DNA from: Bryobacteraceae bacterium
GTDB lineage: Bacteria; Acidobacteriota; Terriglobia; Bryobacterales; Bryobacteraceae
Length of the DNA stretch: 64,000 nt
Assembly: GCA_035280425.1 (NCBI GenBank)
Contig: DATEFW010000043.1
Location: 159,494-223,493 of the forward strand
Direction of reading: 5' to 3'
Shown here: positions 44,619 to 50,980 of the stretch, piece by piece
Position numbering within the stretch: position 1 is the stretch's first letter
Layout of the letters: each line of letters starts with the position of its first letter
Made by a program: the position numbers and the translations under genes
Notes under the pieces: model-generated
Database searches by the model: none
Seen by the model: the letters and a program-made list of their open reading frames with translations, nothing else
Told to the model about the DNA's origin: nothing

Positions 44619-44636
44619 CCCTAATGCCCATTAGGG
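44619..44636. repeat. Inverted repeat CCCTAATG-CC-CATTAGGG upstream of the TPR-glycosyltransferase gene
   Basis: Read directly. It is followed by GTTTTCTGCCGATCA, which matches the flbD promoter segment GTTTTCTGCCGATAA at 14 of 15 positions. Confidence 0.6.
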
Positions 44637-44728
44637 TTTTCTGCCGATCAACAGGCGTGGACAAGAAACGCCGTTACCACGGCCGACCGGCCGGCAGTGT
44701 TGCGACAACCCCGGCGGCCCTGGCCTGG

Positions 44729-46792
44729 ATGGATCGCGCGCTCGACGTGGCTATCCGCTGTCAGCGGGCCGGTGAGGCCGAGCAGGCCAAGCAGCTTTAC
44801 ATACGCATCCTCGAGCAACACCCGGACCACGCGCTGGCCATGCGCAATCTGGGGATCATCGCCAGCCAGTCCGGCGACATCCCGCTGGCGCTCGGCTTGG
44901 CGGAGCGCGCCGTGGCGCTGCGGCCGGAACGCGCGGAGTTTCACGCCAGCTTCGCCATTGCTCTCGGCGCCGCCGGTTTTCCCGAAAAGGCGGCGGCCGA
45001 ATACCGGGTGGCGCTGCGCCTGGACCCGAACTGCGTCGACGCGCTGCACAACTACGGCTACGCGCTGCGGTTACAGGGAGAATTCCGGGAAGCCATCGCG
45101 TGTCTCGAGCGCGTGCTCGCGCTGCGGCCCGATCATTCGCACGCGCGCACGGAACTGGGCAACGCTTATCTTTTCGCGGGTCGATTGGAAGAAGCGGCAA
45201 CGTGTTTCGAGCAGGTCATAGAGGAGCGGCCTTCGGCTTTTGAGGCCATGTCCAACCTGGCGGTAGTCCGTGAGCGCCAGGGCAATGCTGCCGGAGCGGA
45301 GGAGCTTCTGCGGCGGGCCATCCAGATTGCTCCCGGCCAGCACTATGTGCGGGTCAACCTGGGCGATCTGCTGCTCACAGCCAACCGCGTCGGCGAGGCC
45401 GTCAGGTTCCTGGAAGAGTCGGCACGCCAGGCGCCGCGCGTGGCGGAACTGCAGATCTACCTCGGTAACGCTTACGCCAAACAAGGGCGCCTGGACGAGT
45501 CGCTGGGCTGCTACCGGCAGGCGCTGGCGCTCGAACCGAGCTTCGCCGGCACCCACCAGATGGTGCTCTTCGCGCTGCACTACAATCCGGAGCCTTCGCC
45601 GGACGCCGTGCTGGCGGAACACCGCAAGTGGGCCGCGCGCCACGCGGATCCGCTCTCTGGCGCCACGCGGCACACCAACCAGCAGGATCCCGAGCGGCGC
45701 ATACGCGTCGGATATGTCTCGGCCGATTTCCGCCAGCATCCCATTGCGTACTTCACCGCGCCGGTTTTCGCATCGCAGGATCGCGCGCAGATCGAGACGG
45801 TCTGCTACGTCGCGGGCAAGCCCGACGCCTGGACCGAGCGCATTCGAGCGCATGCGTCCGAGTGGAGAGAGATCGCCGAGCTCGGGGACGCCGAGCTGGC
45901 CGAGCTCATCGAACACGACCGGATCGACATCCTGGTCGATCTCTCGGGTCACACGGCGGGCAACCGCCTTCTGGCGTTTGCGCGCAAGCCGGCGCCGGTT
46001 CAGGTGAGCTGGCTGGGTTACTCGGCCACCACGGGAATGCAGGCCATGGATTACCTGATTGCCGACCAGATCGTCGCGCCGCTCAGTGAACCAGCCCCGT
46101 TTATCGAGCAGCCGCTGCGCCTGCCGGGCTGTTTTCTGGCATACGAAATTCCCGGCGATGCTCCTGGCGTGGCTCCCCTTCCCTCGGCGGACCGCGGGTT
46201 TGTCACCTATGGATGTTTCAATGCTTTATCCAAGGTCGGCGTGCACGTCGTCGCGACCTGGTCCCAGATCCTGCGCGCCAACCCGGCGGCCCGGCTGATC
46301 ATGAAGAACTCCACTTTCGACGATCAGGCCTCCCGCGAGTTCTACGCGCAGCAGTTCGAGAAGTTCGGCATTGACCGCCGGCGTGTGGACCTCGAGGGAG
46401 CCTCGCCGCACGGCGAACTGCTGGCGCATTATGCGCAGGTGGATATCGCCCTCGATCCGTTTCCCTATAACGGCGCCACTACGACGTGCGAGGCGCTGGC
46501 CATGGGGGTGCCGGTCGTGACGCTGCGGGGAAACCGCTTTATCAGCCGCGTGGGGTCGAGCGTCCTCGACAGCGCCGGGCTGCACGAGTTGATCACGGAA
46601 AACGAAGCCGATTACATCCGAAAGGCCGTCCGCCTCGCCGAAGACATTCCGGCGCTCGCCCGGATGCGCGCCACCATGCGGGAACGGCTGGCCGCATCCG
46701 CGCTTTTCGATACCGCTGGGTTCACAAGGAGTCTGGAAGGTGCCTATCGAGACATCTGGCGCAAGTGGTGCAGCGCGCAAAAGCGCAACTGA
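44729..46792 (+). CDS. TPR-repeat + SPINDLY/OGT-type (GT41, COG3914) glycosyltransferase; FlmG-like candidate flagellin glycosyltransferase
   Basis: N-terminal TPR repeats. C-terminal motifs RIRVGYVSADFRQHPIAYF, DILVDLSGHTAGNRLLAFARKPAPVQVSWLGYSATTGMQAMDYLIAD, and DIALDPFPYNGATTTCEALAMGVPVVTL. ATG 44729 is preferred, because track start 44624 lies inside the palindrome. Confidence 0.85.
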   Translation: MDRALDVAIRCQRAGEAEQAKQLYIRILEQHPDHALAMRNLGIIASQSGDIPLALGLAERAVALRPERAEFHASFAIALGAAGFPEKAAAEYRVALRLDPNCVDALHNYGYALRLQGEFREAIACLERVLALRPDHSHARTELGNAYLFAGRLEEAATCFEQVIEERPSAFEAMSNLAVVRERQGNAAGAEELLRRAIQIAPGQHYVRVNLGDLLLTANRVGEAVRFLEESARQAPRVAELQIYLGNAYAKQGRLDESLGCYRQALALEPSFAGTHQMVLFALHYNPEPSPDAVLAEHRKWAARHADPLSGATRHTNQQDPERRIRVGYVSADFRQHPIAYFTAPVFASQDRAQIETVCYVAGKPDAWTERIRAHASEWREIAELGDAELAELIEHDRIDILVDLSGHTAGNRLLAFARKPAPVQVSWLGYSATTGMQAMDYLIADQIVAPLSEPAPFIEQPLRLPGCFLAYEIPGDAPGVAPLPSADRGFVTYGCFNALSKVGVHVVATWSQILRANPAARLIMKNSTFDDQASREFYAQQFEKFGIDRRRVDLEGASPHGELLAHYAQVDIALDPFPYNGATTTCEALAMGVPVVTLRGNRFISRVGSSVLDSAGLHELITENEADYIRKAVRLAEDIPALARMRATMRERLAASALFDTAGFTRSLEGAYRDIWRKWCSAQKRN

Positions 46793-48979: not shown

Positions 48980-49041
48980 GGGTGGCGATCTTGTTGAGAA
49001 TGTTGTGGATCGGTAGAACTTAACTTCCAGGAACCTCCGGA

Positions 49042-49932
49042 ATGTTCAGCCTTTGCGAAATTCTGCCCCGCCCGCTGCCCTTGATTCACGTGGTGGATGT
49101 CGGGGCGATGGCGCTCGAAGGCGTCGCGCCGCCGTACGACCCGCTGGTGCGGGCAGGCGCCGCCCGCGTGACCGGATTTGAACCGGTCGAGGAGGAGTGC
49201 CGGAAGCTCAACGCCGCCTGCCCGCCCGGCCACACGTTTCTGCCTTATGCCGTCGGCGACGGAACCGTCAGGACGTTTCGCGAATGCAACTTCAGCATGA
49301 CCAGCTCGCTCTACGAACCGAACACGGCGCTATTGGACAGGTTTCAGAATCTCGGCGAGCTGACGCGGGTGGTTAGCCAGTTCCCCATGGAGACGCGGCG
49401 GCTGGACGATCTGGCCGAGGTCCGCGACGCAGATTTTTTGAAACTCGACGTCCAGGGAGCGGAGCGGGACGTGATCGAAGGCGCGGCAAGCGTGCTGGGC
49501 CATACCCTGGCGGTGCACACGGAAGTCGAGTTCGTTCCGCTTTACGCCGGCCAGCCGCTGTTTGCCGAAGTCGACCAGGCGCTCAGAAGGAACGGCTTCT
49601 GTTTTCACCGTTTCGCCGGCCTCGCCGGCCGCACCTTCAAACCCCTGGTCTATCAAAACAATCCCAATGCGATGTTGAGCCAGGCTTTGTGGGCAGATGC
49701 GGTGTACGTCCGCGACTGGATGCACTGGGAGGCGCTCGTACCCGAGGAACTGCTGAAGCTGGCCCTCATTCTGCACGATGTCTATTCATCCTGCGACCTG
49801 GCGCTCGCTGCGCTCGCGCAATACGACCGGAAAAACGGCGGCGCGTTGAGCGATGCATACCTGAAGCGGCTCACCGGAAATGCCGCCGGGCGGCCGCCTG
49901 TTCCGCAGGAGACCGCTAGCCTTTCCCGCTGA
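49042..49932 (+). CDS. FkbM-family methyltransferase
   Basis: IHVVDVGA...DFLKLDVQGAERDVIEGA...VHTEVEF matches the FkbM pattern. Confidence 0.85.
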   Translation: MFSLCEILPRPLPLIHVVDVGAMALEGVAPPYDPLVRAGAARVTGFEPVEEECRKLNAACPPGHTFLPYAVGDGTVRTFRECNFSMTSSLYEPNTALLDRFQNLGELTRVVSQFPMETRRLDDLAEVRDADFLKLDVQGAERDVIEGAASVLGHTLAVHTEVEFVPLYAGQPLFAEVDQALRRNGFCFHRFAGLAGRTFKPLVYQNNPNAMLSQALWADAVYVRDWMHWEALVPEELLKLALILHDVYSSCDLALAALAQYDRKNGGALSDAYLKRLTGNAAGRPPVPQETASLSR

Positions 49933-50980
49933 CCGTTTCCCGGCCCGCCATCCGGCGGTCCACAATTTCCGAGACAATTTTCGGCAGATCGTATTCGAGC
50001 GACCAGCCGGGAAAATCGCGCTTCAGTTTCTTGAGATCGGAAATGTAGCAGATGTGATCGCCGGTCCGGTTGGTGTCCTGATAACGGTAGCGAAGGCGGA
50101 ATCCCATGCCGTCGAGCAGCCGGACGGTTTCCAGAATCGAGATGCTGTTGGCTCTGCCGCCGCCCAGGTTATAAACCTCGCCCGGCTTGGGATGATGGAA
50201 GAACTCGAGAAACAATCGCGCGACGTCGCGGCAGTGGATCTGGTCGCGCACCTGTTTCCCCTTGTAACCGTAGATCGTGTATTCGCGCCCGGTGACCGCG
50301 CATATCACGATGTAAGCCAGATAGCCGTGCAGTTCTACCGCAGCGTGCTGGGGCCCGGTCAGGCAGCCGCCGCGAAACACGCCGACGGGCATGTGGAAAT
50401 AGCGGCCGAACTCCTGGCACAACACGTCCGCCGCAACTTTGGAAGCGCCGAATAACGAGTGCAGGCACTGGTCGATGGGCATGGTCTCATCCACGCCGTC
50501 GCGGCCGTCCGCGTAATCGTAGCGGGTCTCTTTCTCTTCGAGCGGCAGCTCGTTGGGCCGGTCGCCGTAAACCTTGTTGGTGCTGGTGAAGCAGAATGGC
50601 GATTCCGGGCAAAAATCGCGCGCGGCCACGAGAAGATTCAGCGTGCCCACGGCATTGACATCGAAGTCTTCATACGGAATCGCGGCTGCTTTGTCATGTG
50701 AGGGCTGCGCGGCGGTGTGAATGACGAAATCCGGTTTCTCGTTTTGGATGAGCTCGCGCACACCCTGGCGGTCCCGGATATCCAGAGCGAAATGGCGGTA
50801 GGAAGGAAAACGGTTGAGGAGATCTTCGACCACCGGCCGAGTGGTTCCCTGTGGACCGAAGAATTGGCTGCGAAGATCGTTATCGACTCCTGCGACCTCC
50901 CAGCCGTTCTCAACCAGCAGGCGTACGCAGGCCGAACCGATCAATCCACCGGATCCGGTAACCAGCGCCTTCATTCTCAC
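49916..50980 (-). CDS. Extended-SDR NAD-dependent epimerase/dehydratase (CDP-paratose-2-epimerase-like) with FxxxK in place of YxxxK
   Basis: MKALVTGSGGLIGS cofactor motif. TSTNKVYG. The expected catalytic YxxxK position reads HSLFGASKVAAD, and the TTC codon was verified on the DNA. Confidence 0.88.
   Translation of the reverse strand: MRMKALVTGSGGLIGSACVRLLVENGWEVAGVDNDLRSQFFGPQGTTRPVVEDLLNRFPSYRHFALDIRDRQGVRELIQNEKPDFVIHTAAQPSHDKAAAIPYEDFDVNAVGTLNLLVAARDFCPESPFCFTSTNKVYGDRPNELPLEEKETRYDYADGRDGVDETMPIDQCLHSLFGASKVAADVLCQEFGRYFHMPVGVFRGGCLTGPQHAAVELHGYLAYIVICAVTGREYTIYGYKGKQVRDQIHCRDVARLFLEFFHHPKPGEVYNLGGGRANSISILETVRLLDGMGFRLRYRYQDTNRTGDHICYISDLKKLKRDFPGWSLEYDLPKIVSEIVDRRMAGRETVSGKG

Follow-up and report, generated by a model that had tools for sequence, protein, structure and literature searches.

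What lies behind the filament genes of a soil acidobacterium, and what might it do to the filament? The subject of this analysis is a group of putative sugar-modifying genes on a 64-kb stretch of DNA, hereafter the window, from the metagenome-assembled genome (MAG) of an uncultured soil bacterium of the Bryobacteraceae (Acidobacteriota), where they follow the genes for flagellin (fliC) and the filament cap protein FliD. Genes were identified with Pfam and NCBIfam profiles and with sequence searches against the Protein Data Bank (PDB), about 40 open reading frames (ORFs) of the window being scanned, and the region is arranged as follows.

37371-37619, plus strand: flbD, part of the flagellar locus
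37623-38495, plus strand: motA
38492-39325, plus strand: motB
39306-39779, plus strand: fliW
39770-39997, plus strand: csrA, part of the flagellar locus
40128-42605, plus strand: flagellin, 825 aa, the presumed acceptor (Flagellin_N 3e-23, Flagellin_C 5e-19)
42738-43103, minus strand: 121-aa protein encoded 3' of fliD, without a Pfam match
43110-44534, minus strand: fliD, filament cap (FliD_C 3e-29, and FliD_N)
44729-46792, plus strand: tetratricopeptide-repeat (TPR) protein with a GT41 glycosyltransferase domain, SPINDLY/TtOGT-like, first core gene (PF13844, 183 bits)
46740-48098, plus strand: Zn-ribbon sugar C-methyltransferase-like protein, second core gene (Methyltransf_23 and Methyltransf_14)
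48095-48955, minus strand: TylF/MycF/NovP-type O-methyltransferase, accessory (PF05711, 66.6 bits)
49042-49932, plus strand: FkbM-family methyltransferase, accessory (PF05050, 61.8 bits)
49916-50980, minus strand: extended short-chain dehydrogenase/reductase (SDR), CDP-tyvelose 2-epimerase-like (Epimerase, 9e-37)
50999-52321, minus strand: Amidase_2 protein

An initial annotation had described five sugar-modification genes, from the GT41 gene to the SDR, behind flagellin and fliD, and all of these are present at the positions listed with the domains it claimed. The strands call for correction, as fliD, the TylF gene and the SDR all lie on the minus strand, and flbD, csrA and the 121-aa fliD-linked gene are additionally assigned to the flagellar locus. 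With their strands alternating, the five genes make up no fewer than four transcription units, and so are not a single operon. Among the ORFs scanned there is no nonulosonic-acid (NulO) synthase, as the initial annotation had said, nor a nucleotidyltransferase or 4,6-dehydratase, and a NulO synthase is likewise absent from the flanks of related loci; the same scans reveal no flippase, polymerase, initiating transferase or membrane glycosyltransferase at the island. With a GC content of 0.63-0.66 and a third-position GC (GC3) of 0.75-0.80, four island genes equal the rest of the window, so that a recent horizontal acquisition, which we considered, is unsupported.

GT41 enzymes are soluble protein glycosyltransferases, and the first core gene encodes one with an N-terminal TPR superhelix: several TPR families match residues ~40-320, and the Glyco_transf_41 profile (PF13844) scores 183 bits against a cut-off of 25. 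In the PDB, the full protein aligns over its entire length with Arabidopsis SPINDLY (SPY; 3e-121) and with the OGT of T. terrenum (TtOGT, 5djs; 2e-109), and the catalytic domain by itself retrieves the same two (2e-88 and 3e-98, respectively). The equivalents of SPY K665, H495 and T748 are kept, the motifs FNALSK, RQHP and FPYNGATTT aligning to the SPINDLY positions. The residue gating donor size (SPY Y744, C917 in human OGT) is a tyrosine, which is the SPINDLY/TtOGT/XcOGT type and not the OGT type, and it has been proposed that this residue restricts the donor to sugars smaller than N-acetylglucosamine (GlcNAc) (Zhu et al.). Since the O-fucosyltransferase SPINDLY has the same gate, the donor should probably be sought among hexoses and 6-deoxyhexoses, and not in GlcNAc or a nonulosonic acid, and the methylated (deoxy)hexose glycan of the initial annotation is plausible in being compatible with it. 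That annotation's start at 44729 is also preferred over the longest-ORF start at 44624, because the orthologs are 688 aa long and the promoter discussed below (44621-44650) lies inside the longer ORF.

The second core gene overlaps the first by 53 nt, identically in the window and in the related loci L001, L003 and L004. Its product is matched by PF13489 (Methyltransf_23; 55 bits) and PF08484 (Methyltransf_14; 39.7 bits against a cut-off of 23.5), with a Methyltransf_13 match that is weak on its own (0.0068). Single-sequence searches of the PDB retrieve MtmC, KijD1 and TcaB9 at 1e-14 to 7e-6, while a profile reaches sugar C-methyltransferases at E ~1e-16, in an alignment spanning KijD1 positions 13-381. 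Across 14 sequences from several phyla the four cysteines of a Zn ribbon (C32, C35, C76 and C79) are invariant; the VEIGxGDG motif for S-adenosylmethionine (SAM) is kept, and an invariant E243-H244 pair (in FYYEHNS) aligns to the YxEH motif, which reads IYDEHF in KijD1 and IYHEHL in MtmC. We take this pair to be the equal of TcaB9 E224/H225. Judged by its architecture, the protein should be a genuine nucleoside-diphosphate (NDP)-sugar C-methyltransferase, belonging to a distant and distinct subfamily.

How tightly are the two core genes coupled? A search of one genome per GTDB species with the C-methyltransferase profile yielded 218 relatives, and the best 80 were taken for tblastn with the window proteins. 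In 58 of the 67 genome loci with enough upstream sequence to be evaluated, a GT41 domain ends right at the start of the C-methyltransferase, on the same strand. When 1.84 billion representative proteins were searched with a profile, 1108 clusters at E ≤ 1e-30 were obtained for the C-methyltransferase, and single-polypeptide fusions of 1225-1400 aa came up in both orders, TPR-GT41-C-methyltransferase (P0363-P0368) and C-methyltransferase-TPR-GT41 (P0361). The family is 46-78% identical across phyla. The fusions, the conserved overlap and this cross-phylum identity argue that GT41 and C-methyltransferase are obligate functional partners. A 1296-aa ORF of a Pirellulaceae genome (L083:7406-11296) is apparently also a fusion of the two. 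GT41 matches of ~1100-1260 aa, which had seemed candidates for such fusions, were discarded, as their Pfam lists show no methyltransferase domain; the genuine fusions came from the profile search. A tblastn search of PLSDB plasmids for further C-methyltransferase contexts returned only paralogs of 26-31% identity, from Leisingera and Sinorhizobium, and was uninformative.

The arrangement around the pair recurs in relatives. Metagenome contigs with GT41 orthologs of 59-73% identity carry fliW, csrA, a giant flagellin (794-874 aa), GT41, the C-methyltransferase and then a variable slot, and in L001-L004 the pair stands directly behind the flagellin gene. In L001-L003 a 119-aa gene and fliD follow the variable slot on the opposite strand; the end of L004 differs, with a second flagellin fragment and with fliD on the same strand. 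The 121-aa gene of the window is 48-51% identical to the 119-aa gene that comes after fliD in L001, L003 and L005, and it occupies the usual place of fliS/fliT-type chaperone genes. Whereas these three relatives have both this gene and fliD after the glycan genes, the window has the two transposed between fliC and GT41. Altogether, glycan genes adjoin fliC and fliD, or are placed between the two, in the window and in L001-L008, L012, L024 and L165. Flagellin is found in the same locus in 14 of 17 acidobacterial genome loci; the other three are L009 and L014, which are truncated upstream, and L010, which like L014 still carries fliD. Among the Planctomycetota, flagellin belongs to the locus in 6 of ~20 cases, to which the unclassified bacterium L084 can be added, mostly in the same order: flagellin, GT41, C-methyltransferase and fliD in L063 and L084, and the same without a fliD match in L071 and L080. 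Within 10 kb, the proteobacterial and Desulfobacterota loci have a flagellin gene only in the alphaproteobacterial L046 and in none of the other ~40.

Two expectations of the initial annotation did not hold up in this comparison. The five genes are no fixed set, since only GT41 and the C-methyltransferase are conserved and the TylF and FkbM genes are limited to the closest relatives, and a strict tie to giant flagellins, examined by co-occurrence, is contradicted by L033 and L038, in which the pair adjoins flagellins of ~280 aa. Several of the related loci have peculiarities of their own. The second flagellin of L004 (13835-17013) appears to be split into a 663-aa N-terminal/central ORF and a 215-aa Flagellin_C ORF and may be a pseudogene or the product of an assembly frameshift; L015 and L018 have two full flagellin copies each. 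Beside the flagellar locus of L001 (17057-19029), L003 (16971-18914) and L004 (3312-5276) lies a bacterial-microcompartment shell set, comprising one BMC and three EutN/CcmL genes and a class II aldolase, which is absent at the matching position in the window.

The flagellin itself starts at M35 of a longer ORF, at a position preceded by an AAGGAG ribosome-binding site. Its Ser+Thr content is 20.5%, compared with 7-15% in 21 of the 23 other window proteins tallied and 22.4% in FliD. The "Ser/Thr-rich insert" remarked on in the initial annotation is not unusual for flagellin, as the conserved N-terminal domain alone has 19% Ser+Thr. Lysine accounts for 2.2% of the residues. The central region (~540-600 aa) has no sequence match in the PDB and is 85% identical to its counterpart in L005, the closest genome.

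The window has six exact GCCGATAA sites, three of which lie just 5' of flbD, fliC and fliD, with CTAAA or TCAAA 14-16 nt before them, and a related motif precedes GT41:

37319-37347, plus strand: sigma-28-like promoter of the flbD-motA-motB-fliW-csrA operon, CTAAA-N16-GCCGATAA
40013-40039, plus strand: sigma-28-like promoter of flagellin, TCAAA-N14-GCCGATAA, 89 nt 5' of the ATG at 40128
42634-42686, plus strand: intrinsic terminator of the flagellin gene, an 18-bp stem followed by a T-run
44554-44582, minus strand: sigma-28-like promoter of fliD, CTAAA-N16-GCCGATAA
44621-44650, plus strand: sigma-28-like promoter of the GT41/C-methyltransferase operon, CTAAT-N17-GCCGATCA, 79 nt 5' of 44729

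The motif CTAA-N17-GCCGAT[C/T/G]A is kept 5' of GT41 in the window, L001, L002, L003 and L005, in spite of a different gene lying before it: in these four relatives it follows the fliC terminator and not the fliD promoter. A similar hairpin with a T-run follows fliC in L001, L003 and L005. With its conserved motif, and with a strong terminator closing the flagellin gene, the GT41/C-methyltransferase operon looks like an independent late-flagellar transcription unit. A scan of the locus for sigma-70 promoters gave fewer sites than shuffled controls. No sigma-28-like motif occurs in the 86-nt spacer between the divergent TylF and FkbM genes; this spacer holds a perfect 16-bp palindrome, GGCCGGAATTCCGGCC (48964-48979), which may be a regulator-binding site.

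The genes 3' of the pair are of a different standing. The TylF protein scores 66.6 bits with PF05711 (cut-off 23) and matches MycF (1e-10), NovP (2e-8) and CalS11 (3e-7) in the PDB; its start is ambiguous, for a length of 199-286 aa, the longest ORF being 286 aa, the orthologs 271 aa, and P0241 being called at 199 aa. Orthologs of at least 67% identity are all in flagellar loci of the same arrangement (L001, L002, L005, L165), and homologs of ~50-61% identity sit in polysaccharide clusters of the Wzx/Wzy type. TylF was thus probably recruited from the methylation of polysaccharide sugars, favouring a sugar as its substrate. The FkbM protein (PF05050, 61.8 bits against 22.7; TIGR01444, 41.9 against a cut-off of 37.7) has no solved relative in the PDB by sequence. 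Its orthologs, of 76-81% identity, stand beside TylF in L001, L002 and L005, and in L165 this place is taken by a Methyltransf_21 (FkbM-family) gene. TylF and FkbM are lineage-specific accessories confined to the closest relatives. In L001 and L002 they fill the variable slot, TylF on the minus and FkbM on the plus strand, and L003 and L004 have a radical-SAM/SPASM gene there, which replaces the two in some Bryobacterales. Genes of this kind occur beside the pair at these places:

L003, 13730-14923: radical-SAM/SPASM gene
L004, 8777-9952: radical-SAM/SPASM gene
L006, ~11464-12160: radical-SAM/SPASM gene
L061, ~11234-12100: radical-SAM/SPASM gene
L075, ~8869-9852: radical-SAM/SPASM gene

The homologs beside the pair in an alphaproteobacterium and in a Gemmataceae are of 33-38% identity. 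The gene may represent a recurrent third partner, and its product is possibly an oxidising or modifying enzyme.

The SDR, in turn, is probably a bystander and not a member of the island. Its best PDB match is a CDP-tyvelose 2-epimerase (8e-44), and it belongs to an abundant soil family with at least 579 relatives in metagenomes. Flagellar, GT41, C-methyltransferase or TylF neighbours are absent from all 80 close relatives examined (L085-L164, 55-79% identity), the flanking ORFs of which are enriched in two families, 13 of 56 encoding class-I methyltransferases and 11 of 56 GT2 transferases. Its catalytic YxxxK motif is lost, with SLFGASK in place of the SPYGCSK of 1orr and 9rl0, and the phenylalanine at the position of the canonical tyrosine recurs, as S[LVI]FGASK, in 76 of 77 relatives. 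The SDR was accordingly rejected as the island's 4-ketoreductase or dehydratase, and its relatives, which travel apart from flagellar genes, count against the initial annotation, by its own standard, for this one gene of the five. In L005, a 30-aa SDR remnant (13179-13268) persists between FkbM and the 119-aa gene. The adjacency of SDR and FkbM would thus predate the move by which, in the window, fliD and the 121-aa gene came to lie between fliC and GT41, which speaks of the history of a neighbourhood and not of a conserved linkage.

What can be concluded about the role of the island? On the strength of the genes present and their synteny, of the promoter motifs, of the fusions and of the catalytic residues that are kept, we read it, with a probability of roughly 0.6, as a sigma-28-controlled flagellin O-glycosylation island with the GT41/C-methyltransferase pair as its core and TylF and FkbM as accessories, probably delivering a methylated small (deoxy)hexose. 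The essence of the initial annotation, a flagellin-linked glycan-modification island in the Acidobacteriota, here in the Bryobacteraceae, is therewith upheld by synteny and by the sigma-28-like promoter; and the TPR+GT41 protein is likely the flagellin glycosyltransferase, as suggested by its position behind flagellin, the gene order in Planctomycetota and the same promoter. What we infer from these sequences is that flagellin is the acceptor, which kind of donor is used, and how and in which order the methylations proceed. In the proposed scheme, the soluble TPR+GT41 protein would bind newly made flagellin via its TPR superhelix and, in the cytoplasm and before export, take a sugar, probably a hexose or 6-deoxyhexose, from its nucleotide-bound form and place it on serines or threonines of the large surface-exposed central region. 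The C-methyltransferase would most likely turn a 4-keto intermediate, provided by housekeeping dehydratases elsewhere in the genome, into a C-methyl branched donor; alternatively, it might act on the sugar already attached to the protein. The TylF- and FkbM-type enzymes would then O-methylate the glycan.

Several points weigh against this scheme. It is a prediction from the sequence of an uncultured MAG, and we know of no GT41 enzyme experimentally shown to glycosylate flagellin. The promoter motif of the GT41 operon has one mismatch in the -10 element and, with N17, a longer spacer than the other three. Neither the window nor 18 non-flagellar loci show a 4,6-dehydratase, ketoreductase or nucleotidyltransferase linked to the pair, or a pathway context that would supply an NDP-4-keto-6-deoxy sugar. 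Flagellin lies within 10 kb in only 22 of the 80 genome loci, and the pair is carried by Desulfonema magnum (L016), known as a gliding, non-flagellated organism; flagellin is thus not its universal acceptor.

This last point leads to the view that GT41 and the C-methyltransferase form a general cytoplasmic protein-glycosylation or regulatory module, OGT/SPINDLY-like and with many targets, which is merely sited in the flagellar locus and co-regulated with it. The targets might then be FliW, CsrA or FliS-like regulators, or axial proteins such as FliD, which is as Ser/Thr-rich as flagellin. The wide distribution of the pair, with its 1108 representative clusters, 58 of 80 genome loci without a flagellin gene within 10 kb and the presence in D. 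magnum, would fit such a role, as would the 18 non-flagellar loci, where further TPR-GT41 genes are the only recurrent neighbour families and sugar-nucleotide, lipopolysaccharide (LPS) and exopolysaccharide (EPS) genes do not recur. However, the strict adjacency to flagellin in Bryobacterales and the gene order in Planctomycetota are hard to explain without a filament-related acceptor, the promoter of the GT41 operon is of the late-flagellar type, and accessory sugar methyltransferases gather at this very locus, which together make a module indifferent to flagellin unlikely.

Could the methyltransferases instead serve the flagellin polypeptide? Precedent exists in Salmonella, where FliB methylates it, and some or all of the three enzymes might likewise act on Lys, Gln or Asn side chains, so that the island would serve glycosylation and protein methylation alike. 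Islands for the methylation of flagellin are common (PMC4875605), the methyltransferases here come without sugar-nucleotide genes, and a methyltransferase fused to a protein-binding TPR-GT41 would suit a protein substrate. Yet FliB-like enzymes are not among the three, the full length of the C-methyltransferase can be aligned with sugar C-methyltransferases, including the NDP-sugar-binding domain and the E-H dyad, the homologs of TylF at 50-61% identity are in polysaccharide clusters, and lysine is scarce in this flagellin, so that we regard polypeptide methylation as improbable. Finally, that the five are cell-envelope polysaccharide (LPS/EPS) genes which came to lie beside the filament genes by chance, as the alternating strands, the GT2 and methyltransferase genes that adjoin the relatives of the SDR in place of flagellar genes and the Wzx/Wzy context of more distant TylF homologs might suggest, is scarcely credible and largely refuted for four of the five, because GT41, the C-methyltransferase, TylF and FkbM keep their flagellar linkage across genomes, the island has none of the flippase, polymerase, initiating transferase and membrane glycosyltransferase genes looked for, and GT41 enzymes are soluble and modify proteins.

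Returning to the flagellin O-glycosylation island, a broader scenario can be sketched, which we offer as a tentative one. The pair, spread over Acidobacteriota, Planctomycetota, Desulfobacterota, Proteobacteria, Vampirovibrionales, Chloroflexota and others, might be an ancient two-enzyme module that places a C-methyl branched-chain sugar directly on proteins, and that has been wired to sigma-28 for use on flagellin in Bryobacterales and some Planctomycetota. To our knowledge, such C-methyl branching has been met with in antibiotic sugars and in some few polysaccharides, and nowhere else.

Two further features of the window lie apart from the island. Between the genes for a 735-aa protein and a multihaem cytochrome, a block at 30291-36061 encodes an OMP_b-brl_4/CarboxypepD_reg outer-membrane protein (1152 aa) and two TPR proteins; the two flanking genes adjoin in L001, and L003 is without the insert, so the block seems to have been inserted upstream of the flagellar locus. 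At 2652-6555, the gene for a PSCyt2/PSD1 (DUF1549/DUF1553) protein adjoins that for a DUF1501 protein, a pair typical of Planctomycetes, and it is in Planctomycetota that the flagellin/GT41/C-methyltransferase arrangement recurs.

Glycosylation of flagellin has effects on the assembly of the filament, on motility and on recognition by phages and the immune system, and the characterised systems mostly use nonulosonic acids (Maf, FlmG), next to a few proteobacterial and Gram-positive deoxyhexose systems. The locus would extend it to the Acidobacteriota, an abundant soil phylum. If true, the broader scenario sketched above would also be the first functional assignment for the bacterial SPINDLY/TtOGT-like GT41 enzymes, which have known structures and are functional orphans; a flagellin acceptor with a methylated small-sugar donor is a testable hypothesis for them. 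A TPR-glycosyltransferase next to flagellin and accompanied by methyltransferases is already familiar; what stands out is the highly conserved, uncharacterised GT41/C-methyltransferase pair, and this widely conserved, unstudied module is the part most worth following up, while the practical value is moderate.

How does the island compare with known systems? The initial annotation had considered it to be without a described counterpart, in the Acidobacteriota or elsewhere. The first part of this stands, in so far as the literature open to searching yielded no relevant paper on glycosylated flagellin in Acidobacteria; the second does not, as flagellin glycosylation islands with GT41 (SPINDLY-family, COG3914) and AdoMet methyltransferase domains have been catalogued in enterobacteria, with the two fused in 194 strains and with FkbM methyltransferases as frequent accessories (De Maayer and Cowan, 2016; PMC4875605). 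Common to both are a GT41 in the flagellin/fliD region that is tied to an AdoMet methyltransferase, FkbM accessories, a mosaic and variable accessory set, and the status of a sequence prediction. The enterobacterial islands, however, belong to a different phylum, usually carry sugar-nucleotide genes (aminotransferases, dehydratases, NulO genes), of which the window island has none, and show signs of horizontal transfer, whereas the latter has native GC and is vertically conserved. The partner in the window is specifically a Zn-ribbon C-methyltransferase, a type to which the enterobacterial domain may also belong.

The likeness to FlmG of Caulobacter and Brevundimonas, stressed in the initial annotation, holds for the architecture and is overstated beyond it. 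Both are soluble proteins with an N-terminal TPR and a C-terminal GT-B domain; in FlmG, which is cytoplasmic and expressed with the flagellar genes, the TPR domain binds flagellin and the GT-B domain sets donor specificity (PMC7591256; bioRxiv 10.1101/2022.03.25.485807). In Clostridium, a TPR-glycosyltransferase beside flagellin even serves as a recognition rule for flagellin glycosyltransferases. Unlike the GT41 protein of the window, FlmG has 596 aa and no methyltransferase partner, and it transfers pseudaminic or legionaminic acid from a NulO pathway. Such genes are missing from the window, and the Tyr gate of its GT41 argues against so bulky a donor.

SPINDLY (7y4i/8dtf) and TtOGT (5djs) share with the window protein the layout of TPR and GT41, the Lys/His/Thr residues and the Tyr gate, and S496 of SPINDLY is a proline in both the window protein and TtOGT. 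SPINDLY, however, is a eukaryotic regulator that adds a single O-fucose to many proteins, and for TtOGT, in which no O-GlcNAc activity was seen (PMC9715652), neither a substrate nor an activity is known; a link to flagella or to a methyltransferase is absent from both. The C-methyltransferase, finally, resembles TylC3, TcaB9, KijD1 and MtmC in its four-Cys Zn ribbon, SAM Rossmann domain, C-terminal NDP-sugar domain and YxEH motif. Unlike these, it never accompanies 4,6-dehydratase, 2,3-dehydratase or ketoreductase genes in the loci surveyed, and while they act in antibiotic pathways, encoded in polyketide clusters, it is partnered with, or fused to, a protein glycosyltransferase.

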